From Escherichia coli (GTDB lineage Bacteria > Pseudomonadota > Gammaproteobacteria > Enterobacterales > Enterobacteriaceae): DNA of 64,000 nucleotides. The position numbers and the translations under genes are program-made. Within the stretch, counting starts at the first letter, position 1, and the number at the start of each line of letters is the position of its first letter. The stretch lies in NCBI RefSeq assembly GCF_044324875.1, contig NZ_CP172185.1. One strand, written 5' to 3'. Below, piece after piece: positions 2,539 through 54,179 of this stretch. A model generated the notes under the pieces. The model made no database searches. It was not told the DNA's origin and saw nothing but the letters and a program-made list of their open reading frames with translations.

Positions 2539-4203
2539 TTAGTCAATTTCGTTGGGATCAAGTGCACCGGGAATATTTTTGATCTCTTCCCAGCGTTCCC
2601 CTTGCAGGCGGTAACCTGTAGCCGGTCCGGCGTAATCATTGATGTCATTGACCGCTGAGAGCACTTGTCCGTCATCGACGATGATGGCTGAGGTATGGAG
2701 ATAATCGCCGGTCAGTTTTGCTTTTTGCATGTTGAGCATGTCCTGGGCGACATCGGTAAAACCGCCTTGCGCCAGGGCTTTCACCACTTCCAGGCTGTTA
2801 CGGTTTTTATTGATAATCTCCTGGGCGAACTTGATGTCTTCCACAATATTGCGCTCAGGCATATCTTTCGAACCGTGGGCATAGGTTGCCGCTTCGACTT
2901 CTTCATCGGTAATAGGCGGTAGTCCCATACCGGCAAAGACAGCCTGTAAAGCGCGAGCGGCTTTATTGCGGATAGCGATAACATCTTCTTCGCGTACTGG
3001 TCGCAGCCCGCCATCAACCTTCAGGTCACGCTGAATGACGTTGTAATCATCGAAGTCTTCAGCATCTTCGTTTGAACCAGCAAACATGTTGTCGTAGTTC
3101 GGCACAGCGGAAAAACCGGAAGAGATAAAGTCGGTACCTGGCAGAAACTGCATCAGGAAACGTGCGGTACGGCGCATATCCGAGTGGGTAAAGGTCTGGT
3201 CATTACTGGAAGCGCATTCCAGATCCAGCGATGAGCAAATTAAGTTTTCCGCTAATACTGCGCGGATGCCTGATGGCACAGCCGATGGGACACCGATGCA
3301 GCTTACCGAACCATTCTGCAGACCCTGAACGCCTGCGGCTTTAGTGATGTAAATGCAACGAGCCTCGAGATAAAGCATTGATTTGCCTTCCGCGTAACCC
3401 ATCTGTACTTCTGAGCCGGAGCCGGAAGTAAAGCGCATTTTTAAGCCGCGAGAAGCATAAGATGACGCGAGAAACCCTTTTGACCACGGGGTATCATCGC
3501 CATCGGTGAAAACAGGTTCTGTACCATAGACAGAAATTGTTTCGGCGTAACAGGTGTGGCCTAACATACCGAGTTTCAGTTCGGTGGCTTCTTCCAGTGA
3601 ACACTGGGTCAAGACGCCCGGACGTCCCACCTGTGAGCCGACCAGCAGGGCGATGGCGTTGAACGGTGCATAGCGAGCAACGGCAACGGTGGTTTCCTGT
3701 TCATCAAACCCGCGCCATGCGCCTTCAGCTGCGTCGGCGGCAATTTGTACCGGGTTATCTTTAACGTTGGTGACGTGAGCCTGTTGTGATGGTGTTCGAC
3801 GGGCGCGCATTTTCTGCATCGCCATCATCATCTCTACCACGTTCATCTGCGAAACCACTTCGACGATTTTTGCAGGCGTCATTGCTGTGGTAAGGGGAAC
3901 GATATCGCTACGTTTGACATTTGGATCGCACAACATATTGGCAAGTTTTACCGAATCCATCGCGATGACTTCTTCGGCGCGAGCGAGATTGATGCCGTAG
4001 CGGGCGATAAAGTGGTCGATCAGGTCAAACTGGCTGGCGGGTTTTCCATCCAGTTCGGTAACGACGCCGTTAACAATTTTGATTGACGGTTTAGGATCGT
4101 TCGGGCTTTCCATCGCAATGAAGCCTTCTTCAATCCACTCTTTAACGAAACCGTCCTGGTTGACCGGGCGTTTTGCCAGTGCTTCAAATCTTTTCGATCT
4201 CAT
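2539..4203 (-). CDS. pduC: B12-dependent propanediol/glycerol dehydratase large subunit
   Basis: 554 aa ORF, the size and sequence of a diol dehydratase large subunit. Confidence 0.9.
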   Translation of the reverse strand: MRSKRFEALAKRPVNQDGFVKEWIEEGFIAMESPNDPKPSIKIVNGVVTELDGKPASQFDLIDHFIARYGINLARAEEVIAMDSVKLANMLCDPNVKRSDIVPLTTAMTPAKIVEVVSQMNVVEMMMAMQKMRARRTPSQQAHVTNVKDNPVQIAADAAEGAWRGFDEQETTVAVARYAPFNAIALLVGSQVGRPGVLTQCSLEEATELKLGMLGHTCYAETISVYGTEPVFTDGDDTPWSKGFLASSYASRGLKMRFTSGSGSEVQMGYAEGKSMLYLEARCIYITKAAGVQGLQNGSVSCIGVPSAVPSGIRAVLAENLICSSLDLECASSNDQTFTHSDMRRTARFLMQFLPGTDFISSGFSAVPNYDNMFAGSNEDAEDFDDYNVIQRDLKVDGGLRPVREEDVIAIRNKAARALQAVFAGMGLPPITDEEVEAATYAHGSKDMPERNIVEDIKFAQEIINKNRNSLEVVKALAQGGFTDVAQDMLNMQKAKLTGDYLHTSAIIVDDGQVLSAVNDINDYAGPATGYRLQGERWEEIKNIPGALDPNEID

Positions 4204-12234: not shown

Positions 12235-12310
12235 TGGCTCCTCTGACTGGACTCGAACCAGTGACATACGGATTAACAGTCCGCCGTTCTACCGACTGAA
12301 CTACAGAGGA
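12235..12310 (-). tRNA. asnV: tRNA-Asn (anticodon GUU)
   Basis: Reverse complement reads TCCTCTGTAGTTCAGTCGGTAGAACGGCGGACTGTTAATCCG...GGTTCGAGTCCAGTCAGAGGAGCCA, the E. coli tRNA-Asn sequence; gene name assigned by position. Confidence 0.95.
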
Positions 12311-12635
12311 ATCGTGTGAACGGGGCGCATATTAATGGCAGTGCATGGTGATGTCAAAGGGTGAAATGCATTTTTTTGTTTGTTTGCTGTCAATTTCAAC
12401 AAAGTGGTGAGCTTTCAATCTTATTGGTAATGAACCATCGTGGTGCATACCCTCCTTTTATGGGGCAGGGGAACGCGACAGCTGATAAAAAGAGCCAATG
12501 ACGAACCTATCATAATCTCTTATTTGACAGTTGGTTAGCTTGTACATCAACGCCAAAATAAAACTGGCAAGCATCTTGCAATCTGGTTGTAAGTAATGGC
12601 GGCACTTGGGCCGATTCTTATAAACCGGAGGCAAC

Positions 12636-13553
12636 ATGAACTTCAGACGCCTGAAATACTTCGTAAAAATTGTAGATATTGGTAGCCTGACCCAGGCTGC
12701 TGAAGTATTGCATATCGCACAACCAGCGCTCAGTCAGCAGGTTGCCACACTGGAAGGTGAGTTAAATCAACAGCTTTTGATTCGCACAAAACGGGGCGTT
12801 ACGCCAACTGACGCCGGAAAAATTCTCTATACCCATGCGCGGGCCATTTTACGTCAGTGTGAGCAGGCCCAACTGGCGGTGCATAACGTTGGTCAGGCAT
12901 TATCGGGGCAAGTCTCGATTGGCTTTGCGCCAGGAACCGCTGCGTCATCCATCACCATGCCCTTATTACAGGCGGTTCGCGCTGAATTCCCGGAGGTCGT
13001 TATCTATCTTCATGAAAATAGCGGTGCAGTGCTTAACGAAAAACTGATAAATCACCAACTCGATATGGCGGTGATTTATGAGCATTCCCCTGTGGCTGGT
13101 GTATCCAGTCAGGCTTTACTGAAAGAAGATCTTTTTCTGGTAGGAACTCAAGATTGCCCGGGGCAAAGCGTTGATGTTAATGCTATTGCGCAAATGAACC
13201 TCTTTCTCCCCAGTGATTACAGTGCTATTAGACTTCGTGTTGATGAGGCTTTTTCCCTACGGCGACTCACGGCAAAAGTCATTGGTGAAATTGAGTCTAT
13301 TGCCACGCTTACCGCAGCGATTGCCAGCGGCATGGGCGTTGCAGTATTACCCGAATCGGCCGCGCGTTCGTTATGTGGCGCAGTAAATGGGTGGATGTCA
13401 CGCATTACCACTCCTTCCATGAGTCTCTCTTTGTCATTAAATTTACCCGCCAGAGCGAACTTATCGCCACAGGCACAGGCAGTGAAAGAGTTGTTAATGT
13501 CAGTGATGAGTTCTCCAGTGATGGAAAAAAGGCAGTGGCAATTGGTGAGCTAA
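12636..13553 (+). CDS. nac: LysR-family nitrogen assimilation control protein
   Basis: 305 aa ORF with N-terminal LysR HTH (MNFRRLKYFVKIVDIGSLTQAAEVLHIAQPALSQQV...). Confidence 0.9.
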   Translation: MNFRRLKYFVKIVDIGSLTQAAEVLHIAQPALSQQVATLEGELNQQLLIRTKRGVTPTDAGKILYTHARAILRQCEQAQLAVHNVGQALSGQVSIGFAPGTAASSITMPLLQAVRAEFPEVVIYLHENSGAVLNEKLINHQLDMAVIYEHSPVAGVSSQALLKEDLFLVGTQDCPGQSVDVNAIAQMNLFLPSDYSAIRLRVDEAFSLRRLTAKVIGEIESIATLTAAIASGMGVAVLPESAARSLCGAVNGWMSRITTPSMSLSLSLNLPARANLSPQAQAVKELLMSVMSSPVMEKRQWQLVS

Positions 13554-13654
13554 GCGTTATATCGGGATGGAATAAGATGCGGGTTTTTATTATTTGTTAT
13601 GCCGGGCATTAGACTTTAACAATAACGGGATATCTGAACTGCCCGGAGTTTACC

Positions 13655-14605
13655 GTGAATTTCCAACAACTAAAGATAATCCGCGAGGCTGCACGTCAGG
13701 ATTACAACCTGACAGAGGTTGCGAATATGCTTTTTACCTCACAGTCAGGCGTCAGCCGTCACATTCGGGAACTGGAGGATGAACTTGGCATCGAAATATT
13801 TGTTCGACGAGGTAAGCGACTGCTGGGCATGACTGAACCGGGCAAAGCATTACTGGTCATTGCAGAACGCATTCTTAATGAAGCCAGTAATGTTCGTCGG
13901 CTTGCAGACCTGTTTACCAACGATACGTCTGGCGTTCTCACTATTGCAACGACGCATACTCAGGCACGTTATAGCTTGCCTGAGGTCATTAAAGCTTTTC
14001 GCGAACTTTTCCCGGAGGTTCGGCTGGAGCTAATCCAGGGTACGCCACAGGAAATTGCGACGTTGTTGCAAAATGGCGAAGCTGATATTGGTATCGCCAG
14101 CGAGCGTTTGAGTAATGACCCGCAGCTCGTCGCCTTCCCGTGGTTTCGTTGGCACCATAGTTTGCTTGTTCCACTCGATCATCCCTTGACGCAAATTACA
14201 CCGTTGACGCTGGAATCAATAGTGAAGTGGCCGTTAATCACTTACCGACAGGGGATTACGGGGCGCTCACGTATTGATGACGCATTTGCCCGCAAAGGTT
14301 TGCTGGCAGATATTGTATTAAGTGCGCAGGATTCTGATGTCATTAAAACCTATGTTGCTCTTGGGCTGGGGATTGGATTAGTTGCCGAACAATCCAGCGG
14401 CGAACAAGAGGAAGAGAATTTAATCCGTCTGGATACGCGGCATCTTTTCGATGCCAATACTGTATGGTTGGGACTGAAGCGAGGGCAACTTCAACGTAAC
14501 TATGTCTGGCGCTTTCTGGAACTTTGTAATGCAGGACTGTCAGTTGAGGATATCAAGCGCCAGGTGATGGAGAACAGTGAAGAGGAAATTGATTATCAGA
14601 TATAG
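13655..14605 (+). CDS. cbl: LysR-family regulator Cbl
   Basis: 316 aa ORF MNFQQLKIIREAARQDYNLTEVANMLFTSQSGVSRHIRELE...; CysB-like, adjacent to nac as in E. coli. Confidence 0.9.
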   Translation: MNFQQLKIIREAARQDYNLTEVANMLFTSQSGVSRHIRELEDELGIEIFVRRGKRLLGMTEPGKALLVIAERILNEASNVRRLADLFTNDTSGVLTIATTHTQARYSLPEVIKAFRELFPEVRLELIQGTPQEIATLLQNGEADIGIASERLSNDPQLVAFPWFRWHHSLLVPLDHPLTQITPLTLESIVKWPLITYRQGITGRSRIDDAFARKGLLADIVLSAQDSDVIKTYVALGLGIGLVAEQSSGEQEEENLIRLDTRHLFDANTVWLGLKRGQLQRNYVWRFLELCNAGLSVEDIKRQVMENSEEEIDYQI

Positions 14606-14606
14606 C

Positions 14607-14634
14607 AAAAAGCCCGCTATAAAAGCGGGCTTTT
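14607..14634. terminator. Intrinsic terminator hairpin after cbl
   Basis: AAAAAGCCCGC-TATAAA-GCGGGCTTTT immediately after the cbl stop. Confidence 0.6.
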
Positions 14635-14642
14635 CAGAAATT

Positions 14643-14718
14643 TGGCTCCTCTGACTGGACTCGAACCAGTGACATACGGATTAACAGTCCGCCGTTCTAC
14701 CGACTGAACTACAGAGGA
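14643..14718 (-). tRNA. asnU: tRNA-Asn (anticodon GUU)
   Basis: Same 76-nt tRNA-Asn sequence on the minus strand. Confidence 0.95.
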
Positions 14719-14878
14719 ATCGCTGTTGAGGCACATCTTAACGGCGAAAAATCTTTTGTCAAACCCGATTTTTAAATTTCCCAACTGTTTGCCGTTTCTA
14801 TCAACAGTTTGTTGCATTTGCAGACAATTTGTTGGCGAAAATCTTTGCAGCTTTGCTGATTCTCCCTCATTATTTGAA

Positions 14879-16366
14879 ATGTGGTTTCACTTTCTGCAAT
14901 TAAGGTCGGCTTTGAATATCTCCTCTGCTTTACGCCAGGTTGTTCACGGCACTCGCTGGCACGCCAAACGCAAGAGTTACAAAGTGTTGTTCTGGCGCGA
15001 GATAACCCCGCTTGCTGTTCCTATCTTCATGGAGAACGCCTGTGTCCTGTTGATGGGTGTCCTGAGCACTTTTCTGGTCAGCTGGCTGGGAAAAGATGCG
15101 ATGGCCGGCGTGGGATTGGCGGACAGCTTCAATATGGTCATTATGGCATTTTTTGCGGCTATCGATCTTGGTACCACTGTCGTTGTGGCATTTAGTCTCG
15201 GTAAGCGGGATCGACGACGAGCGAGGGTGGCGACGCGGCAGTCATTGGTGATCATGACGTTGTTTGCCGTGCTGTTGGCAACGCTTATTCATCATTTTGG
15301 CGAACAAATTATTGATTTCGTTGCGGGTGATGCCACGACAGAAGTTAAAGCACTGGCGTTGACTTATCTGGAGCTGACGGTACTCAGTTATCCAGCAGCT
15401 GCCATCACTTTGATTGGTAGTGGTGCACTTCGTGGTGCAGGGAATACGAAAATACCGCTACTGATTAACGGTAGCCTGAATATTCTTAATATTATTATTA
15501 GCGGCATATTGATTTACGGCCTTTTCTCCTGGCCGGGACTGGGATTTGTCGGGGCTGGGTTGGGTTTAACCATTTCTCGTTATATTGGCGCAGTGGCAAT
15601 TTTGTGGGTGCTGGCGATTGGTTTTAATCCTGCGCTAAGGATTTCGTTAAAGAGCTATTTTAAACCGCTGAATTTTAGCATTATCTGGGAAGTCATGGGG
15701 ATTGGTATTCCAGCAAGTGTCGAATCAGTATTATTTACCAGTGGTCGGTTATTAACCCAAATGTTCGTTGCCGGGATGGGGACCAGTGTTATTGCCGGAA
15801 ATTTTATCGCGTTTTCAATTGCGGCTCTTATCAACTTACCCGGAAGTGCGCTCGGCTCTGCTTCTACGATCATTACAGGCCGAAGGTTGGGAGTAGGGCA
15901 GATAGCGCAAGCAGAGATTCAGTTGCGGCATGTGTTCTGGCTGTCCACTCTTGGATTAACGGCCATCGCCTGGCTAACGGCTCCCTTTGCCGGGGTTATG
16001 GCATCGTTTTACACCCAGGATCCACAGGTTAAACATGTCGTTGTGATTCTGATTTGGCTAAATGCTTTATTTATGCCTATTTGGTCTGCCTCATGGGTGC
16101 TACCCGCTGGATTTAAGGGTGCTCGCGATGCACGTTACGCCATGTGGGTTTCTATGTTGAGCATGTGGGGTTGCCGGGTTGTAGTCGGTTATGTGCTGGG
16201 AATCATGCTTGGCTGGGGTGTGGTTGGTGTCTGGATGGGAATGTTTGCCGACTGGGCTGTGCGGGCCGTGCTGTTTTACTGGCGAATGGTTACTGGACGT
16301 TGGCTGTGGAAATATCCTCGACCTGAGCCGCAAAAGTGTGAAAAAAAGCCAGTTGTGTCGGAATAA
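14879..16366 (+). CDS. yeeO: MATE-family efflux transporter
   Basis: ORF track frame 14726..16366; start moved to an internal Met to give the roughly 495 aa I recall for YeeO; many transmembrane segments. Confidence 0.85.
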   Translation: MWFHFLQLRSALNISSALRQVVHGTRWHAKRKSYKVLFWREITPLAVPIFMENACVLLMGVLSTFLVSWLGKDAMAGVGLADSFNMVIMAFFAAIDLGTTVVVAFSLGKRDRRRARVATRQSLVIMTLFAVLLATLIHHFGEQIIDFVAGDATTEVKALALTYLELTVLSYPAAAITLIGSGALRGAGNTKIPLLINGSLNILNIIISGILIYGLFSWPGLGFVGAGLGLTISRYIGAVAILWVLAIGFNPALRISLKSYFKPLNFSIIWEVMGIGIPASVESVLFTSGRLLTQMFVAGMGTSVIAGNFIAFSIAALINLPGSALGSASTIITGRRLGVGQIAQAEIQLRHVFWLSTLGLTAIAWLTAPFAGVMASFYTQDPQVKHVVVILIWLNALFMPIWSASWVLPAGFKGARDARYAMWVSMLSMWGCRVVVGYVLGIMLGWGVVGVWMGMFADWAVRAVLFYWRMVTGRWLWKYPRPEPQKCEKKPVVSE

Positions 16367-16466
16367 ACGACAAAGTGCAGATTATTTCAGCAAACGATTT
16401 CAAATTTAAAAAACAGGCTTTGACATTGTGGATGAGCGTCGCTAATATTCGCCTCGTTCTCACGAT

Positions 16467-16542
16467 TCCTCTGTAGTTCAGTCGGTAGAACGGCGGACTG
16501 TTAATCCGTATGTCACTGGTTCGAGTCCAGTCAGAGGAGCCA
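16467..16542 (+). tRNA. asnW: tRNA-Asn (anticodon GUU)
   Basis: Plus-strand TCCTCTGTAGTTCAGTCGGTAGAACGGCGGACTGTTAATCCGTATGTCACTGGTTCGAGTCCAGTCAGAGGAGCCA. Confidence 0.95.
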
Positions 16543-31801: not shown

Positions 31802-31877
31802 TGGCTCCTCTGACTGGACTCGAACCAGTGACATACGGATTAACAGTCCGCCGTTCTACCGACTGAACTACAGAGGA
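31802..31877 (-). tRNA. asnT: tRNA-Asn (anticodon GUU)
   Basis: Fourth copy of the identical 76-nt tRNA-Asn sequence, minus strand. Confidence 0.95.
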
Positions 31878-32867: not shown

Positions 32868-32957
32868 CGGAGAGATGCCGGAGCGGCTGAACGGACCGGT
32901 CTCGAAAACCGGAGTGGGGGCAACTCCACCGGGGGTTCAAATCCCCCTCTCTCCGCC
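32868..32957 (+). tRNA. serU: tRNA-Ser (anticodon CGA)
   Basis: GGAGAGATGCCGGAGCGGCTGAACGGACCGGTCTCGAAAACCGGAGTGGGGGCAACTCCACCGGGGGTTCAAATCCCCCTCTCTCCGCCA: long-variable-arm class II tRNA with anticodon CGA. Confidence 0.9.
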
Positions 32958-33002
32958 AAAATTCAATCACTTATACATCATTAAGTCAGTGACAAAAATC
33001 AC

Positions 33003-33038
33003 ACTTGGAATTACTTGGAATATTTTCTTGGAATATTT
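33003..33038. repeat. Three direct CTTGGAAT repeats next to the attachment site (candidate integrase arm-type sites)
   Basis: CTTGGAAT at about 33003, 33013 and 33026, with GGAATATTTT occurring twice; lies between the tRNA-Ser 3' end and the integrase 3' end. Confidence 0.35.
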
Positions 33039-34036
33039 TCAGGTAACGGGACATCAAGTGTTGGTGAAACTTTAACCTTCCGGTCATAGATTAGCACTTG
33101 CCCTTCGGTTTTGTGACCAGAGAAAAGTTGCTTATCCCGGCTGCTTCCTTCATAGTCTGAAATTCCTTTCGCCTTCAGATCATGAAAGGTGAAGTCGGTT
33201 AAAATACCTGAAACTTTGCCTGCGCGATTTCTTGCTTCTACCCACATTTCGTTAAAGCCTTTGTACATATATCGGTTGCCGTATTGATTGCTGATCACAT
33301 AGGCGGATTTTGGTAACTGTTTTGCTTTTTCGACCGCTGCCTGTAATCGTGGACTCCATGCTTTTATCTGTTTTTTCCCTGTTTTCCCTTGCTGGATAAA
33401 GATCCCGTCGTTTCCAATCTGCTCCCATTTCAGCGATAACACATCGGAAACCCTCGCTGCACACAGATAGGCAATTTCCATTGCGATAAAAACAGGAAGG
33501 GGTGCCACGCTTAATACTGCCTGGTATTCTTTGTCGGTTACATATCGTTCGCGGTTTTTGGCCTTGAATTTACTTACTCCTGCACATGGGTTAGCCTTCA
33601 CGTACCCTCGCTCATACCCCCAACTGTAAACACGGGACATACTGCTTTTTTCATGGTTGGCTTGCGTTTTACTCTGTTCCCCTCTTTTGTCCATGTATCG
33701 ACGGATGTGTTCTGGTTTTATGGAATCCGCTGGTACCTTACCGAATACGGCAAGCAACTTTTTTTGATGTTGCAGATAATCTTTTTGTGTTCTTGGACTA
33801 AGGTCACTGTAACAGGCGCTGGCGAGGAATTTTTCCCACAAGCGACCGAATGTCATTGCACGATCGCGATTATTTACAGTTTCCTCATACTTTTTCCATA
33901 AAGCAGCTAAACCATCCTTGATGGCGGTTAGTGTTACAGATTCTCTGGATGTTGGTTTCCATACATAACTATATTTATTTGGGTATACATTTGGAGGTAA
34001 TTTTTCGTGTTCAGGATTTTTCCTTCGTCTTCCCAT
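33011..34036 (-). CDS. int: Tyrosine recombinase (phage integrase)
   Basis: 341 aa ORF adjacent to the tRNA and reading toward it; C-terminal region has tyrosine-recombinase-like R...HxxR...Y spacing (…FTFHDLKAKGISDYEGS…HKTEGQVLIYDRK…). Confidence 0.85.
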   Translation of the reverse strand: MGRRRKNPEHEKLPPNVYPNKYSYVWKPTSRESVTLTAIKDGLAALWKKYEETVNNRDRAMTFGRLWEKFLASACYSDLSPRTQKDYLQHQKKLLAVFGKVPADSIKPEHIRRYMDKRGEQSKTQANHEKSSMSRVYSWGYERGYVKANPCAGVSKFKAKNRERYVTDKEYQAVLSVAPLPVFIAMEIAYLCAARVSDVLSLKWEQIGNDGIFIQQGKTGKKQIKAWSPRLQAAVEKAKQLPKSAYVISNQYGNRYMYKGFNEMWVEARNRAGKVSGILTDFTFHDLKAKGISDYEGSSRDKQLFSGHKTEGQVLIYDRKVKVSPTLDVPLPENIPRKYSK

Positions 34037-47099: not shown

Positions 47100-48158
47100 G
47101 TGCGGGTATTACTTCGACCTGTTCTGGTACCGGAACTCGGGCTGGTGGTCCTTAAGCCCGGTCGTGAATCCATGCCGGTATTTCACAATCCTCGAGTGCT
47201 GGTGGAGCCGGAACCGAAAAGTATGTGCGGCCTGCCATCCGGAGTCGTCCCTGCCGTTCGCCAGCCGCTGGCGGAGGATAAATCATTACTGCCATTTTTC
47301 AGCGATGATCGGGTGATTCGTGCTGTTGGCGGCGCTGGGGCACTGTCTGACTGGCTGTTGCGTCATGTCAAATCCTGCCAGTGGCCTCATGGTGACTATC
47401 ATCACAGTGAAATCGTCATACATCGTTACGGTACCGGCGCGATGGTGTTGTGCTGGCACTGCGACAACCAGCTGCGTGACCAGACATCCGAATCACTCGA
47501 GCAACTTGCTCATCAAAACCTGTCAGCATGGATGATTGACGTCATCGGTCACGCAATAAGCGGTACGCAGGAGCGTGAATTATCTCTGGCTGAATTATCC
47601 TGGTGGGCGGTCCGCAATCAGGTGGCGGACGCGCTTCCGGAGGCAGTATTACGTCGTTCTCTGGGGTTACGTGCGGAAAAAATCCGCTCCTTGTACCGCG
47701 AAAGCGACATCGTACCGGGAGAGCAGACCGTCACCAGCATACTGAAGCAGCGCACAAAAAATATTGCGCTACCGCCTCTCGTCCACCAGCAACAGAACCC
47801 ACCACAGGAAGAGACGGTGGTCAGCATTGCCGTTGATCCGGAGTCACCGGCTCAGTATCTCCAGCGCCAGAAACCACAACGGGAAGAGATGCCTGTATAC
47901 ACGCGCTGGGTAAAAACGCAGAAATGCATGACGTGCGGTAATCAGGCAGATGATCCGCATCACATCATTGGTCATGGACTGGGAGGGATGGGAACAAAGG
48001 CTGATGATTTGTTTGTTATTCCGCTGTGCCGTAAATGTCATAACGAACTGCACGCCGGGGTAAAAGATTTTGAAGAAAAACACGGCAGCCAGCTGTTGTT
48101 GCTGATTCGTTTTTTAATGCACGCGAGAAATTCAGGTGTCCTGAAGTGGAAAGCATAA
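47100..48158 (+). CDS. DUF968-like nin-region protein with C-terminal Cys/His HNH-like motif
   Basis: GTG start after GGAGG; C-terminus CMTCGN...DPHHIIGHGLGGMGTKADDLFVIPLCRKCHNELH; sits before rusA. Confidence 0.5.
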   Translation: MRVLLRPVLVPELGLVVLKPGRESMPVFHNPRVLVEPEPKSMCGLPSGVVPAVRQPLAEDKSLLPFFSDDRVIRAVGGAGALSDWLLRHVKSCQWPHGDYHHSEIVIHRYGTGAMVLCWHCDNQLRDQTSESLEQLAHQNLSAWMIDVIGHAISGTQERELSLAELSWWAVRNQVADALPEAVLRRSLGLRAEKIRSLYRESDIVPGEQTVTSILKQRTKNIALPPLVHQQQNPPQEETVVSIAVDPESPAQYLQRQKPQREEMPVYTRWVKTQKCMTCGNQADDPHHIIGHGLGGMGTKADDLFVIPLCRKCHNELHAGVKDFEEKHGSQLLLLIRFLMHARNSGVLKWKA

Positions 48159-48524
48159 ATGACTGAAAGCATAGAATTTGTTTTGCCTTACCCGCCAACG
48201 GTGAACACCTACTGGCGACGTCGTGGCAGCACATATTTTGTATCAAAAGCCGGTGAGCGTTATCGCCGTGATGTGGCGCTCATTGTTCGCCAGCAGCGGC
48301 TGAAGTTAAACCTGTCCGGACGGCTGGCGATAAAGATTATTGCAGAGCCACCGGATAAACGTCGTCGTGACCTGGACAATATCCTGAAAGCACCACTGGA
48401 TGCGCTGACGCATGCCGGACTTCTCATAGACGACGAGCAGTTTGATGAAATCAATATTGTGCGCGGTCAGCGCGTTCCTGGGGGGCGGCTGGGCGTGAAG
48501 ATTTACAAAATTGAGAGTGAGTGA
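48159..48524 (+). CDS. rusA: Holliday junction resolvase RusA
   Basis: 121 aa MTESIEFVLPYPPTVNTYW... with the RusA acidic motif RRRDLDN. Confidence 0.85.
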   Translation: MTESIEFVLPYPPTVNTYWRRRGSTYFVSKAGERYRRDVALIVRQQRLKLNLSGRLAIKIIAEPPDKRRRDLDNILKAPLDALTHAGLLIDDEQFDEINIVRGQRVPGGRLGVKIYKIESE

Positions 48525-49111
48525 TCGTAAATATGATATACCCGGAAATTACAGGCAAAAGCGGCGAGCATTTACGTCTAAAAACGCTGGAAGCCGTCTG
48601 GATCCAGGGGAAATTACGGATGTGGGGGCGTTGGTCGTATATCAGTGGAGGGACTAGCGGTAACATGTTTAACCAACTGCTTGTATCCAGCAAAATTACC
48701 AAAACTGCAATCAACGATGCGCTGCGCCGTATGAAAAAGTCAGGCATTACGAAACCAGAGCTCGAAGCTTATTTGCGCGAAATACTCAACAGTAAAAACA
48801 AAAGTAGTCTGGCGTTTTGCTCGGACGATGAAGGCCTGAAGATTGACGGTGTGATCGCCTCGGTGCTGATGAATAATGATTACCGTTCTCTATACGGTGT
48901 GATTGTTGGCCGGTATCGTCTGCGTAAGAGCAAGTTGCAAATGGCCAATGAGCTTCATATTAAACATCCTGACTGGGCGCTCATTACCTGTCGCCGCCGA
49001 GTTGACACATGGATAAGTTTGGCCGAATCGCTCCTGTACGTTCCACTATGTGATGCGTTTGGCACAAATAGCGACAGATTTAAATTGCAAAGTGAGCAAG
49101 AAAGTGCTTGA
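48521..49111 (+). CDS. Putative late-gene antiterminator (Q-position protein)
   Basis: 196 aa ORF between rusA and the lysis cassette; assignment is positional only. Confidence 0.4.
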   Translation: MIVNMIYPEITGKSGEHLRLKTLEAVWIQGKLRMWGRWSYISGGTSGNMFNQLLVSSKITKTAINDALRRMKKSGITKPELEAYLREILNSKNKSSLAFCSDDEGLKIDGVIASVLMNNDYRSLYGVIVGRYRLRKSKLQMANELHIKHPDWALITCRRRVDTWISLAESLLYVPLCDAFGTNSDRFKLQSEQESA

Positions 49112-49510
49112 ATTGTGATAAGCTCGGGACGAAAAGCGAACTGAGCAACATAATAGTAAGAACCCGCCATTGTGCGGGTTTTTTTGTCTGCACAACAGGT
49201 AAGAGCACTGAACCCGCAGACCTCGCGGAACTGGTGAAAGGTGCCGCGCAGTGCTCTTATCGTTGTGGTGAAGCTCAATGGCGAGCTAGCAGATAGGCGA
49301 CAGTGAAAATACTAGTCATGTATCTGACCGCCGCGCGTACTGCAATCGGCAGCGCACCGATGGAAGCCGGTTCGATTCCGGCCGCCACAACCCAAACTGA
49401 GCCGTAGCCACTGGCTGTCCTGAACTCCTCAGTGATAGTTACGCTGCGGCCTTCTTTTTCCCCTTCCTAATACAAGAACTACGCAATCCGTTACTGGCGG
49501 AGGCGTTGCT

Positions 49511-49726
49511 ATGAAATCCATGGATAAGATAACAACGGGTGTCGCCTATGGCACCTCGGCAGGCAGTGCCGGGTACTGGTTTTTACAGTGGCTTGATCAG
49601 GTTAGTCCGTCACAGTGGGCTGCTATTGGTGTGCTGGGGAGTCTGGCACTGGGCTTTCTGACTTATCTGACGAATCTGTATTTCAAAATTAAAGATGATC
49701 GGCGCAAAGTGGCGCGGGGAGAGTAG
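49511..49726 (+). CDS. Holin (phage 21 S21 pinholin-like, dual-start motif)
   Basis: [71 protein letters not shown], closely matching what I recall of S21 including the Met-Lys-Ser-Met dual start. Confidence 0.85.
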
Positions 49727-49729
49727 GCG

Positions 49730-50041
49730 ATGAATAAAAAATACGAACTGGTTATTAAAGGGATAAGTAGTCACCCGGATAAGGTTGTGGTTACTGTGGC
49801 GCTGGAGAGCGACGGCTATCCGACGCTGTTTTCGCCGCATGTGGTGATTAAGCTTGATCGTGTTGACGGCGCAGCGCTGGAGCTTTATGAAGCAGAGGCG
49901 AAAAAACGAGCGAAGAAGATTTTTATGGATGCTGCTGCCGGGTTATGTGAAGCGTGGTCGTTGCCGGAAAAGCGCCTCCATTCAGAGGCGCGGTATACCA
50001 TAAAAATTAACGGTTCAGATAACTCAATTGCTGGTTTTTAA
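49730..50041 (+). CDS. Hypothetical protein translationally coupled to the holin
   Basis: 103 aa ORF starting 4 nt after the holin stop with GGAGAG upstream; no transmembrane segment or recognised motif. Confidence 0.5.
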   Translation: MNKKYELVIKGISSHPDKVVVTVALESDGYPTLFSPHVVIKLDRVDGAALELYEAEAKKRAKKIFMDAAAGLCEAWSLPEKRLHSEARYTIKINGSDNSIAGF

Positions 50042-50277
50042 CCTTTTGTCTCAGTTGGCTTTCCAATATCTTTCATTGGTAGCAGCATTTCGATATTGCT
50101 TTTGATATATGGATTATCTGCATGTTCTGTTAATTGATAAATGATAGCATTTTTTTCATTCTGGTCTAATACAGAAAACATAACTGCAATCATATATTTA
50201 AGAGCCTCAATTTCTCCTGTTGTTGAGTTGGGGGATGAACAGTCCGCTGTAACATTAATAAAAGTTTCTTTTTTCAT
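50038..50277 (-). CDS. Hypothetical protein, convergent, AT-rich
   Basis: 79 aa ORF with AAGGA ribosome-binding site; 3' end overlaps the 3' end of the upstream plus-strand gene by 4 nt; visibly AT-rich. Confidence 0.45.
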   Translation of the reverse strand: MKKETFINVTADCSSPNSTTGEIEALKYMIAVMFSVLDQNEKNAIIYQLTEHADNPYIKSNIEMLLPMKDIGKPTETKG

Positions 50278-50401
50278 ATCAGATCCTTAGATGGGGTAGC
50301 TCAGCCAACCACCCGAGCCTTAACCGGAACGCCAGTGCCCACTACACTACTGGCGGGCTGAGGCTTTAACATATCCAGGGTTCAGAAAACGATAAATATC
50401 C

Positions 50402-50935
50402 ATGAGCACAAAAATCAGATACGGCCTGTCGGCTGCCGTTCTGGCGTTGATTGCTGCAGGTGCATCCGCTCCCGTCATTCTTGACCAGTTTCTGGACGAA
50501 AAAGAAGGTAATCACACTACGGCATACCGTGATGGCTCCGGTATATGGACCATCTGTCGGGGTGCCACGATGGTGGATGGAAAACCCGTTTTTCCCGGTA
50601 TGAAACTGTCGAAGGAAAAATGCGACCAGGTCAACGCCATCGAACGGGATAAGGCGCTGGCATGGGTGGAGCGCAATATTAAAGTTCCACTGACCGAAGC
50701 ACAGAAAGCGGGTATTGCGTCATTCTGTCCCTATAACATTGGCCCCGGTAAGTGTTTCCCGTCGACGTTTTATAAGCGGCTGAATGCCGGTGATCGTAAG
50801 GGCGCATGCGAGGCGATTCGCTGGTGGATAAAAGATGGTGGGCGCGATTGCCGCATACGTTCAAATAACTGCTATGGACAGGTTATTCGTCGTGACCAGG
50901 AAAGCGCATTAGCCTGTTGGGGAATAGATCAGTGA
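50402..50935 (+). CDS. Phage lysozyme (T4-lysozyme fold) with N-terminal signal-anchor, SAR-endolysin-like
   Basis: N-terminal hydrophobic [21 protein letters not shown] followed by catalytic E-x8-D-x5-T ([16 protein letters not shown]). Confidence 0.8.
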
Positions 50936-51399
50936 GCAGAGTCGCCGCGATTATTTATGCTCTGGTTATCTGCACTATCGTCTGCCTGTCGTGGGCGGTC
51001 AATCATTACCGTGATAACGCCATAGCCTACAAAGAACAGCGTGATAAAAAAGTCAGTGAGCTGAAGCAGGCGATCGCCACCATCGCTGACATGCAGCAGC
51101 GTCAGCGTGATGTTGCTGCGCTCGATGCAAAGTACTCGAGAGAATTAGCCAATGCGAAAGCTGAAAATGAAACTCTGCGCGCTGATGTTGCCGCTGGTCG
51201 TAAGCGCCTGCGGGTCAATGTCAGTTGCTCCGAAGCCGTGCGTGAAGCCACCGGACCCACCAGCGTGGATAATGCAACCAGCCCCCGACTGGCAGACACC
51301 GCTGAACGGGATTATTTCACCCTCAGAGAACGGTTGATGACGATGCAGAAGCAACTGGAAGGGGCACAGGAGTATATCCGCACTCAGTGCATTAAGTAG
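50932..51399 (+). CDS. Spanin, inner-membrane subunit (Rz)
   Basis: GTG start overlapping the endolysin stop; [38 protein letters not shown]... closely matches lambda Rz from memory. Confidence 0.8.
51152..51337 (+). CDS. Spanin, outer-membrane lipoprotein subunit (Rz1), embedded in Rz in the +1 frame
   Basis: [21 protein letters not shown]...[32 protein letters not shown]: lipobox and proline-rich region matching lambda Rz1. Confidence 0.8.
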
Positions 51400-51441
51400 C
51401 CTTTTTATCGTGGTAAACATTTCGCAGGGTATGAGGTATTT

Positions 51442-51792
51442 ATGCCATCACGAATCCCACGCGCCTGCCGTAAGCGTGGATGTGCAGGTACAACCACAGA
51501 CAGTTCTGGTTACTGCGATAAACATCGTGGCGAAGGATGGGTACAGCATCAACGCGGACTGAGCCGCCACCAGCGTGGCTATGGCTCGAAATGGGATGCC
51601 ATACGTGCGCGCATACTGAAGCGTGATAATCATCTGTGTCAGAACTGCCTGTGCAATGGGAGAGCTGTTGAAGCCAGAACTGTGGACCACATCATTCCGA
51701 AAGCTCATGGTGGCACGGATGCAGACAGTAACCTGCAGAGTCTGTGCTGGCCCTGTCATAAAGCAAAAACAGCGCGCGAACGCATCAATTGA
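51442..51792 (+). CDS. HNH endonuclease (terminase-associated)
   Basis: 116 aa with ...CQNC...DHIIPKAHGG...NLQSLCWPCH...; directly upstream of the terminase small subunit. Confidence 0.8.
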   Translation: MPSRIPRACRKRGCAGTTTDSSGYCDKHRGEGWVQHQRGLSRHQRGYGSKWDAIRARILKRDNHLCQNCLCNGRAVEARTVDHIIPKAHGGTDADSNLQSLCWPCHKAKTARERIN

Positions 51793-51939
51793 TAACAGCT
51801 CCCATCTGCAGGGGAGGGGCGGGTCAAATCTCTGCAACCCAGGCTGCTCAGTACCGCCGCCTTGCCTTTCCTCGCATCGCCGCAGGTTCGAAAACTTTTT
51901 TTTGGAAAGTTATTAAATGATTGATAGGTAAAACCGATT

Positions 51940-52422
51940 ATGTCAGGACCCCCGAAAACCCCGCCACGCCTGCATTTGATACGAGGCAACCCCTCAAAGC
52001 GCCCCGTTAAAGACCCAAAAAAAACCGCTAAAAAGGATGAAAAAGGTCTCCCTAAAATTCCGCAACATTTAGGGTCGCAGGGGAAGTACTGGTTCAGGCG
52101 AATGGCGGAAGAACTGAATGCGGAAGGGATCATTTCTCAGCTTGATGCGCGTGCACTCGAGTTACTGGTGGAAGCCTACACCGAATACCGGCATTACTGC
52201 GAAACACTCGATGTTGAGGGGTATACCTACCGCACGGAAACGCAGAACGGTGATGTGCTGATTAAGGCACACCCGGCTGCTGCGATGAAAGCGGATGCCT
52301 GGAAGCGGATCCGGGCGATGCTTGCAGAATTTGGTATGTCACCGGCAAGCCGGGCGAAAGTAAATACCGCCGGACCGGATGATGTTGATCCGCTGGCGGA
52401 GCTTTTAAAAGCGAGAGACTGA
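51940..52422 (+). CDS. Terminase small subunit
   Basis: 160 aa ORF immediately preceding and abutting the terminase large subunit. Confidence 0.7.
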   Translation: MSGPPKTPPRLHLIRGNPSKRPVKDPKKTAKKDEKGLPKIPQHLGSQGKYWFRRMAEELNAEGIISQLDARALELLVEAYTEYRHYCETLDVEGYTYRTETQNGDVLIKAHPAAAMKADAWKRIRAMLAEFGMSPASRAKVNTAGPDDVDPLAELLKARD

Positions 52423-54179
52423 TGGCAAAAGTGGCTGACGGGATCCGCTACGCCGAACGTGTTGTTGCAGGAGAAATTGTTGCTGGCGAATTTGTCCGCC
52501 TAGCCTGCCAGCGTTTTCTTGATGATCTGAAGTACGGCGAAGAGCGGGGGATTTATTTCAGTGAACCCCGTGCGCAGCACATCCTGAATTTCTACAAATT
52601 TGTGCCCCATGTGAAAGGGGCGCTGGCAGGCCAGCCCATTGAGTTGATGGACTGGCATGTATTTATCCTCATTAATATTTTTGGTTTTGTCATTCCGCTG
52701 GTGAATGAAGAGACCGGGGAAGTTGTCATGCGCAGCGATGGCAGCGGACGCCCGGTGATGGTGCGCCGGTTCCGGACGGCGTACAACGAAGTCGCCCGTA
52801 AAAACGCAAAATCAACCCTGTCATCGGGTATCGGCCTGTATATGACGGGGGCAGATGGTGAAGGCGGTGCTGAGGTTTATTCAGCCGCAACCACGCGTGA
52901 TCAGGCCAGAATTGTGTTTGAAGACGCCAAAAATATGGTCAGAAAAGCCCGGTCGACACTCGGGCGGTTGTTTGATTTCAACAAGCTGGCGATTTACCAG
53001 GAGCAGAGCGCATCAAAATTTGAGCCGCTTTCCTCGGATGCAAACAATCTGGACGGTCTGAACATCCACTGCGCCATTATTGATGAGCTGCATGCACATA
53101 AAACCCGTGACGTGTGGGACGTTCTGGAAACGGCAACCGGTGCCCGTCTGCAGTCCCTTTTATTTGGTATCACCACGGCAGGGTTTAACAAGGAAGGGAT
53201 TTGTTACGAGCAGCGTGATTACGCCATCAAGGTATTGCGTGGCTATAACAGCGACGTGGAGGGCGCGGTAAAAGACGACTCCTACTTTGCGATTATTTAC
53301 ACCCTCGATGAGGGAGATGATCCGTTTGATGAAACGGTCTGGCAGAAAGCGAATCCCGGCCTGGGCATCTGTAAACGCTGGGATGATCTGCGTCGCCTGG
53401 CGAAAAAAGCGAAAGAACAGGTCTCTGCGCGGGTGAATTTTTTTACCAAACACATGAATGTGTGGGTCACTGCCGAATCAGCCTGGATGGACATGATTAA
53501 GTGGGAGAAGTGCGAATATATTGCTCCACGACATGAGCTGAAAACATATCCCATGTGGGTCGGCGTTGACCTTGCTCATAAGATTGATATCTGTGCAGCG
53601 GCAAAACTCTGGCGAACGGATAACGGGCATGTTCATGCCGATTTTAAATTCTGGCTTCCGGAAGGACGGCTGGAACGATGCTCGCGGCAGCAGGCAGAAC
53701 TTTACCGGAAGTGGGCGGAGATGGATAAGCTGATTCTGACGGATGGTGATGTTATCGATCATGGCCAGATAAAAAGTGACTTACTGGAATGGACTGGTGG
53801 TGAAAACCTCAGGGAACTGGGATTTGACCCGTGGAGCGCGATGCAGTTCAGCCTGGCACTGGCTGAAGAAGGGATACCGCTGGTGGAGGTTCCGCAGACG
53901 GTTCGCAATCTGTCAGAGGCCATGAAGGAAACGGAATCACTGGTCTATGCCGGGCGTTTCCATCACAGCAATCACCCGGTCATGAACTGGATGATGTCTA
54001 ACGTTACGGTGAAACCGGACAAAAACGACAATATCTTCCCGAATAAATGCACGCCGGAAGCCAAAATCGACGGCCCTGTTGCGCTTTTTACAGCCATGAG
54101 CCGCCTTCTGGTAAATGGCGGGGACGTGAATGACTTTCTGTCCACGCTTGATCCTGATGAGGACCTGTTAATTCTGTGA
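52422..54179 (+). CDS. Terminase large subunit
   Basis: 585 aa; size and position fit a terminase ATPase/nuclease. Confidence 0.85.
   Translation: MAKVADGIRYAERVVAGEIVAGEFVRLACQRFLDDLKYGEERGIYFSEPRAQHILNFYKFVPHVKGALAGQPIELMDWHVFILINIFGFVIPLVNEETGEVVMRSDGSGRPVMVRRFRTAYNEVARKNAKSTLSSGIGLYMTGADGEGGAEVYSAATTRDQARIVFEDAKNMVRKARSTLGRLFDFNKLAIYQEQSASKFEPLSSDANNLDGLNIHCAIIDELHAHKTRDVWDVLETATGARLQSLLFGITTAGFNKEGICYEQRDYAIKVLRGYNSDVEGAVKDDSYFAIIYTLDEGDDPFDETVWQKANPGLGICKRWDDLRRLAKKAKEQVSARVNFFTKHMNVWVTAESAWMDMIKWEKCEYIAPRHELKTYPMWVGVDLAHKIDICAAAKLWRTDNGHVHADFKFWLPEGRLERCSRQQAELYRKWAEMDKLILTDGDVIDHGQIKSDLLEWTGGENLRELGFDPWSAMQFSLALAEEGIPLVEVPQTVRNLSEAMKETESLVYAGRFHHSNHPVMNWMMSNVTVKPDKNDNIFPNKCTPEAKIDGPVALFTAMSRLLVNGGDVNDFLSTLDPDEDLLIL

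Follow-up and report, generated by a model that had tools for sequence, protein, structure and literature searches.

In phage lambda, the prototype of the embedded two-component spanins, the Rz1 gene is enclosed in full by Rz, in the +1 frame, and begins at 0.47-0.48 of the Rz length, as it does in the locus described here. Lambda Rz consists of a TMD, CC1, the L2 linker and CC2 (Cahill et al. 2017, PMC5295617); the TMD covers residues 4-24, and C99 and C152 of Rz and C29 of Rz1 form homotypic disulfides (PMC5295617). A survey of spanins found that about 70% of the embedded ones start at 0.4-0.5 and end at 0.9-1 of the length of the enclosing gene (Kongari et al. 2018, PMC6139136). The HK97/P22-type embedded spanins have the same +1 architecture and a homologous Rz (47-66% identity), but their o-spanin belongs to another sequence family (…PEPAAWAMEKAQDLQQMLNSIITVSE…; 'HK97' in Kongari et al. 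2018), whereas the Rz1 reported here is of the lambda family (PMC6139136). Unimolecular spanins of the T1 gp11 type act at the same lysis step, outer-membrane disruption (PMC6139136), yet combine an N-terminal lipobox and a C-terminal TMD in one polypeptide, unlike the arrangement in our locus.

The locus lies in a 64,000-nucleotide stretch of Escherichia coli DNA (contig NZ_CP172185.1 of assembly GCF_044324875.1), hereafter the window. Its gene structure, its homology, its motifs and purifying selection on both frames identify it, with very little doubt, as an embedded lambda-family two-component spanin pair that ends the lysis cassette of an HK97/lambdoid-type prophage. The Rz/Rz1 pair is already known and already named, and the value of the result lies mainly in correct annotation: the prophage has the holin, endolysin, i-spanin and o-spanin expected for a Gram-negative host, Rz1 is often missed by automated annotation, and 'endopeptidase Rz' is a legacy misnomer.

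The Rz and Rz1 genes

The i-spanin gene, Rz, occupies 50932..51399 on the plus strand (468 nt, 155 aa, GTG start, TAG stop), exactly where the original prediction had placed it. Its product and lambda Rz share 75% identity (115/153, over 153 of 155 aa; E = 7e-84), the reference for both lambda proteins being J02459. In Pfam it scores 165.4 bits (cut-off 25.4) with PF03245, 'Bacteriophage Rz lysis protein', over profile positions 1-125 of 126, and in PHROGs it matches phrog_13, 'Rz-like spanin' (E = 1.6e-75). The exact sequence is already in NCBI as 'lysis protein [Escherichia coli]', on 39 contigs. A three-way DNA alignment of the window, lambda and cdtI starts to match at xTGAGCAGAGTC, while the bases upstream are unrelated and are part of the endolysin gene. 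Position 50932 is thus the correct start of Rz, because homology to lambda and cdtI begins exactly there. A TTG start at 50917, which a mechanical list of open reading frames gave for an Rz of 160 aa, was rejected on the same ground.

A single N-terminal TMD is predicted in Rz at about residues 4-24 (50941..51003, plus strand) from Kyte-Doolittle hydropathy, the AlphaFold helix and the alignment to lambda; hydropathy over 19 residues reaches its maximum, 2.46, at residues 4-22, and the residues flanking the segment are the same as those flanking the lambda TMD. The AlphaFold model (a monomer built from an 11-sequence alignment, pTM 0.30, mean pLDDT 73.9, relied on for secondary structure alone) has a helix at 3-87, a low-confidence coil at 96-121 and a second helix at 122-154. 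These predicted helices and the linker match the TMD-CC1-L2-CC2 layout of lambda Rz. Two cysteines, Cys99 and Cys153, align with lambda C99 and C152. A PDB sequence search with Rz returned chance matches only (alpha-haemoglobin stabilising protein, E about 0.15), and a search of NCBIfam gave a sub-threshold match for Rz and no matching model for Rz1.

The o-spanin gene, Rz1, lies at 51152..51337 on the plus strand (186 nt, 61 aa, ATG start, TGA stop). Its start is offset by 220 nt from that of Rz, so that (51152-50932) mod 3 = 1, and the gene is fully embedded in the +1 frame, which bears out the claim of a lipoprotein gene contained entirely within Rz. Rz1 spans 0.47-0.87 of the Rz length, close to the position of most embedded spanins described above. 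Over its full length the product shows 72% identity to lambda Rz1 (44/61; E = 2e-28), and it matches Pfam PF06085, 'Lipoprotein Rz1 precursor' (64.3 bits, cut-off 27.9) and PHROGs phrog_3198, 'Rz-like spanin' (E = 7e-29). A PDB sequence search with Rz1 gave no matches; in NCBI, the exact sequence is present on 404 contigs as 'Rz1 family lipoprotein'.

The first 60 nt of Rz1 (51152..51211, plus strand) encode a signal peptide and the lipobox V-S-A-C, which was found by regular expression at residue 17 and aligns with lambda LVVVGC, where Cys20 is the lambda site (PMC5295617); the hydrophobic core scores 2.49 on the Kyte-Doolittle scale over 11 residues. Cys20 is predicted to be lipidated, and the +2 residue is Gly, not Asp, and is compatible with outer-membrane sorting. 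The mature protein would have 42 aa (Cys20 to Gly61), ten of which are Pro. The proline-rich region at 51248..51286 (plus strand), equivalent to the lambda P5 stretch and PRR, differs from lambda by two changes only, P34D and P43A. In lambda, P34, the third residue of the penta-proline, tolerates alanine, and no defective P43 allele is tabulated (PMC5295617). Cys30 aligns with lambda Rz1 C29.

On the opposite strand, an antisense open frame of 91 aa at 51145..51420 crosses Rz/Rz1 and has no family support. Lambda carries a comparable antisense frame of 70 aa, and the frame in the window is probably a by-product of dual-coding, doubly constrained sequence.

Comparison with lambda Rz and Rz1

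Pairwise alignment with lambda was the check proposed with the original prediction, and the 75% and 72% identity obtained for Rz and Rz1 both lie above the clustering rule of at least 40% identity over at least 40% of the length (Kongari et al. 2018, PMC6139136). At the DNA level, lambda matches the region at 82.8%. The likeness to lambda extends to the TMD, the CC1-linker-CC2 layout, the lipobox with Cys20, the proline-rich region and the three cysteines that correspond to C99, C152 and C29. The differences are small. Rz is 2 aa longer than in lambda, owing to one insertion in the linker and a C-terminal IK in place of R, and Rz1 is longer by 1 aa. Where lambda Rz1 has PPPPP and VVGC, the window has PPDPP and VSAC.

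The two proteins were also compared with the lambda mutational map (Table 3 of PMC5295617). At mutationally sensitive positions of lambda Rz, 25/28 residues are identical in the window, the changes being K70R, R91K and E150T; 14 of the 15 sensitive positions of Rz1 are likewise identical, and the one change, G19A, is inside the lipobox and still a legal residue there. E150R and E150G are lysis-defective in lambda (PMC5295617). At this position, Thr is near-invariant among the aligned natural relatives. As far as can be read from the DNA, every sequence feature required by the lambda spanin model is present and under selection, and the prediction of a complete spanin pair holds at that level, both reading frames being complete.

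Translation signals

As in lambda, Rz directly follows the endolysin gene with a 4-nt overlap of start and stop. In the window the overlap is GTGA (50932..50935, plus strand), in which the Rz start overlaps the TGA stop of the endolysin; the corresponding bases of lambda and cdtI are ATGA. The lambda-like reading is thereby refined in one respect, in that Rz starts with GTG and not with the ATG of lambda. Phage vB_EcoS-611R1 and E. coli AR_0085 share the GTGA start. An overlap of this kind is associated with translational coupling, which may also apply here.

The Shine-Dalgarno of Rz1 is weaker than in lambda. The region before the ATG (51131..51151) contains GAGAGAA, with a predicted anti-Shine-Dalgarno pairing of -3.0 kcal/mol, compared with -8.3 kcal/mol for the AAGGAG of lambda and cdtI and -6.4 kcal/mol for the GAGGGAA of Stx phages. 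The signal is degraded because the overlapping Rz codons have changed from T-K-E to S-R-E. The window shares this upstream sequence with vB_EcoS-611R1, and the weak signal is a minor, lineage-specific difference; it is the sole mildly unusual point of the locus and is no argument against an Rz1 gene. It is conceivable, although we regard it as unlikely, that the lineage that includes vB_EcoS-611R1 has an altered Rz:Rz1 ratio, or that its Rz1 translation depends on ribosomes translating Rz. The basis for this suggestion is the GTG start of Rz, the degraded Shine-Dalgarno of Rz1 and the P-to-D change in the penta-proline motif taken together; if true, it would mean a known system with a minor difference in regulation.

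The lysis cassette and its prophage

Upstream of the lysis genes lies a Q-like antiterminator gene (DUF1133/Phage_antitermQ) at 48521..49111. About 50 nt downstream of it, a GC-rich hairpin followed by seven T residues (AACCCGC-CATTGT-GCGGGTT, 49161..49185, plus strand) lies where a terminator of the tR' type, which Q antitermination reads through, would be expected; its shape is also that of such a site and resembles the tR' terminator of lambda. The intergenic region between Q and S (49112..49510) also contains a tRNA-like 3' fragment (…GCCGGTTCGATTCCGGCCGCCA…) at 49335..49393. An Rfam scan of 48000..52500 found nothing at gathering score and returned this fragment only, as a match to the tRNA/tmRNA clan below gathering score (E = 2.5e-5, 20 bits). 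ARAGORN at default settings called no tRNA at 49335..49393, and with relaxed settings it called a tRNA-Arg(tcg) on the opposite strand. tRNA genes upstream of the lysis genes are found in many lambdoid and Stx phages, and the fragment is probably a decayed copy of such phage tRNA genes.

The cassette itself begins with a class II holin gene of the phage 21 S type (49511..49726, plus strand; PF04971, 120.8 bits), which has the dual-start motif MKSM. Between holin and endolysin lies a moron-like insert (49730..50277) that is conserved in many E. coli prophages. It comprises an ORF of 103 aa of the DUF1327/YdfR family (49730..50041, plus strand) and a convergent, AT-rich ORF of 79 aa (about 30% GC; 50038..50277, minus strand), which matches phrog_21218 and has no Pfam match. 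The endolysin gene follows at 50402..50935 on the plus strand. Its product belongs to the lysozyme family (PF00959, E = 8.7e-25), matches the PDB entries 3hde (Lysozyme) and 4zpu (RrrD), and has an E-x8-D-x5-T motif. The Ala/Gly-rich hydrophobic stretch at its N-terminus resembles the SAR (signal-anchor-release) domain of phage 21 R. Comparison of holin and endolysin with lambda S and R showed no similarity. The description of the cassette as lambda-like therefore stands for the spanin pair and fails for the holin (PF04971) and the endolysin (PF00959). Judged from these matches, the cassette is a mosaic in which the spanin pair is lambda-like and the rest of phage 21/Qin type.

Downstream of Rz, an HNH endonuclease gene (PF01844) and ORFs of the size of TerS and TerL occupy 51442..54179, followed by portal, head and tail genes. 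An HNH gene directly upstream of TerS/TerL is typical of HK97-like cos packaging. Nothing resembling a terminator lies in the 42 nt between the Rz stop and the HNH gene, and the late transcript therefore probably runs on through HNH. Over about 70% of 25 kb, the prophage aligns at about 94% identity with the deposited E. coli phage genomes vB_EcoS-689R5, 813R8 and Evi, and its surroundings are E. coli-like chromosome. The window has tRNA features at 12235..16542, 31802..31877 and 32869..32958, with four tRNA-Asn(gtt) and one tRNA-Ser(cga). The tRNA-Ser(cga) is followed by a reverse ORF of 341 aa (33011..34036), of integrase size, and then by ORFs of the early region. The integration site of the prophage is apparently a tRNA gene of the serU type, since the tRNA-Ser(cga) directly adjoins the ORF of integrase size.

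Alternative explanations

The nested frame could in principle be a chance open frame in a real Rz gene, with no Rz1 protein made. Length does not discriminate here: a +1 ORF of 61 aa or more turns up in 39% of the sequences obtained by shuffling the synonymous codons of Rz, and ORF length was dropped as a test and replaced by a filter for lipoprotein features (basic N-terminus, hydrophobic core and lipobox) together with comparative tests. With this filter, a lipoprotein-like embedded ORF arose in only 13 of 5000 shuffles, whereas an embedded +1 ORF with a lipobox is kept in all 12 relatives fetched (lambda, cdtI, 611R1, two Stx phages, mEp235, N7, ST64B, BTP1, HK106, the Hafnia phage Pocitis76 and P13374), whose Rz is 35-93% identical. 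The Rz1 products of these relatives fall into two sequence types, lambda-like and HK97/P22-like, matching the two o-spanin families published as 'Lambda' and 'HK97' (PMC6139136). Within the overlap the third codon position of Rz is the second position of Rz1, and among six lambda-type genes the variable third positions of Rz drop from 55/92 outside the overlap to 17/60 inside it (Fisher's exact test, p = 2e-4) and to 2/30 opposite the conserved C-terminal half of Rz1, residues 32-61 (p = 1e-7). Third positions that are almost frozen in this way are the expected signature of purifying selection acting on both Rz and Rz1, and the codon-position pattern is a clean textbook case of such selection on overlapping frames. 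The weak Shine-Dalgarno before the ATG, and the many annotations that have no CDS there (RefSeq for AR_0085 and most phage records), would fit a chance frame; against it, Rz1 also has high identity to an experimentally characterised lambda protein and scores above the Pfam cut-off, and we consider the probability of a chance frame negligible.

It is also very unlikely that the pair, although intact in sequence, is poorly expressed or losing its function in a domesticated prophage, in which case the GTG start and the weak ribosome-binding site of Rz1 would be signs of relaxed selection. The decayed tRNA-like fragment between Q and S and the extra moron-like genes within the cassette would agree with such decay, as would the two translation signals themselves. 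However, the same GTGA and the same sequence upstream of Rz1 occur in vB_EcoS-611R1, a record deposited as a phage genome, and the overlap of Rz with the endolysin gene appears to be of the translational-coupling kind. Neither frame is interrupted and almost all of the sensitive residues are conserved; the prophage retains an integrase (an ORF of that size) and replication, Q, lysis, terminase, head and tail genes, and its similarity to deposited phage genomes, given above, also argues against domestication. As for the enzymatic role implied by the names in phage and RefSeq records ('endopeptidase Rz', 'RzpD prophage endopeptidase'), in which Rz would be a peptidoglycan endopeptidase and not a membrane-fusion spanin, 'endopeptidase' is a legacy label. 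Neither Pfam nor NCBIfam finds a peptidase domain in Rz, which is predicted to consist of a TMD and two long helices with a disordered linker, and in lambda the genetic evidence makes Rz/Rz1 a complex that spans the periplasm and disrupts the outer membrane (PMC5295617, PMC6139136). An endopeptidase is thus extremely improbable, and an embedded spanin pair is the reading that we retain.

Proposed role

Topology, lipidation, complex formation and membrane fusion are inferred for this spanin pair by analogy with the lambda paradigm (PMC5295617, PMC6139136). On this model, Rz would sit in the inner membrane in type II orientation, with a single TMD at its N-terminus and a helix-linker-helix domain in the periplasm. 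Rz1, whose translation starts at a separate ATG in the +1 frame, would be exported, receive its lipid at Cys20 and end up in the inner leaflet of the outer membrane. By homology to lambda, disulfide-linked homodimers of Rz and of Rz1 would bind to each other through their C-termini across the periplasm. When the holin triggers, releasing or activating the endolysin, the peptidoglycan meshwork would be destroyed and the spanin complexes held by it would be freed; collapse of the complex would then fuse the inner and outer membranes and complete lysis.

Relatives and their annotation

The Rz/Rz1 region has DNA-level matches in 417 phage records, the best of which are cdtI and phi458 (94.9%) and vB_EcoS-689R5 and 611R1 (97.7% over 94% of the query). 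The Rz1 proteins of this group, in which vB_EcoS-611R1 and 689R5 are induced E. coli phages, differ from that of the window at 2 positions. cdtI differs further in its ATG start of Rz and in the strong AAGGAG before Rz1. Its Rz ends in TQRIK, with Arg at the site of the C-terminal Cys, the counterpart of lambda C152, and its Rz1 keeps the Cys equivalent to C29. In lambda, loss of Rz C152 is tolerated only if the C29 disulfide of Rz1 is kept.

The rzpD cassettes of E. coli cryptic prophages of the Qin/DLP12 type have the same order of holin, DUF1327, small reverse ORF, lysozyme and Rz, which RefSeq names class II holin/essD, DUF1327/YdfR, hypothetical protein, rrrQ and rzpD; a CDS for Rz1 is usually absent from the RefSeq annotation of such cassettes. 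The best match of the whole cassette to a complete E. coli genome is only 94.8%, and the Rz there is closer to that of lambda. In AR_0085 (NZ_CP029741; Rz at 2623..3084 of the fetched segment), Rz1 is present in the +1 frame without a CDS annotation; there, as in most matching phage records, Rz is still named 'endopeptidase'. The gene that follows Rz in AR_0085 is iss (increased serum survival), which encodes a Bor-like lipoprotein, whereas in the window it is the HNH endonuclease gene.
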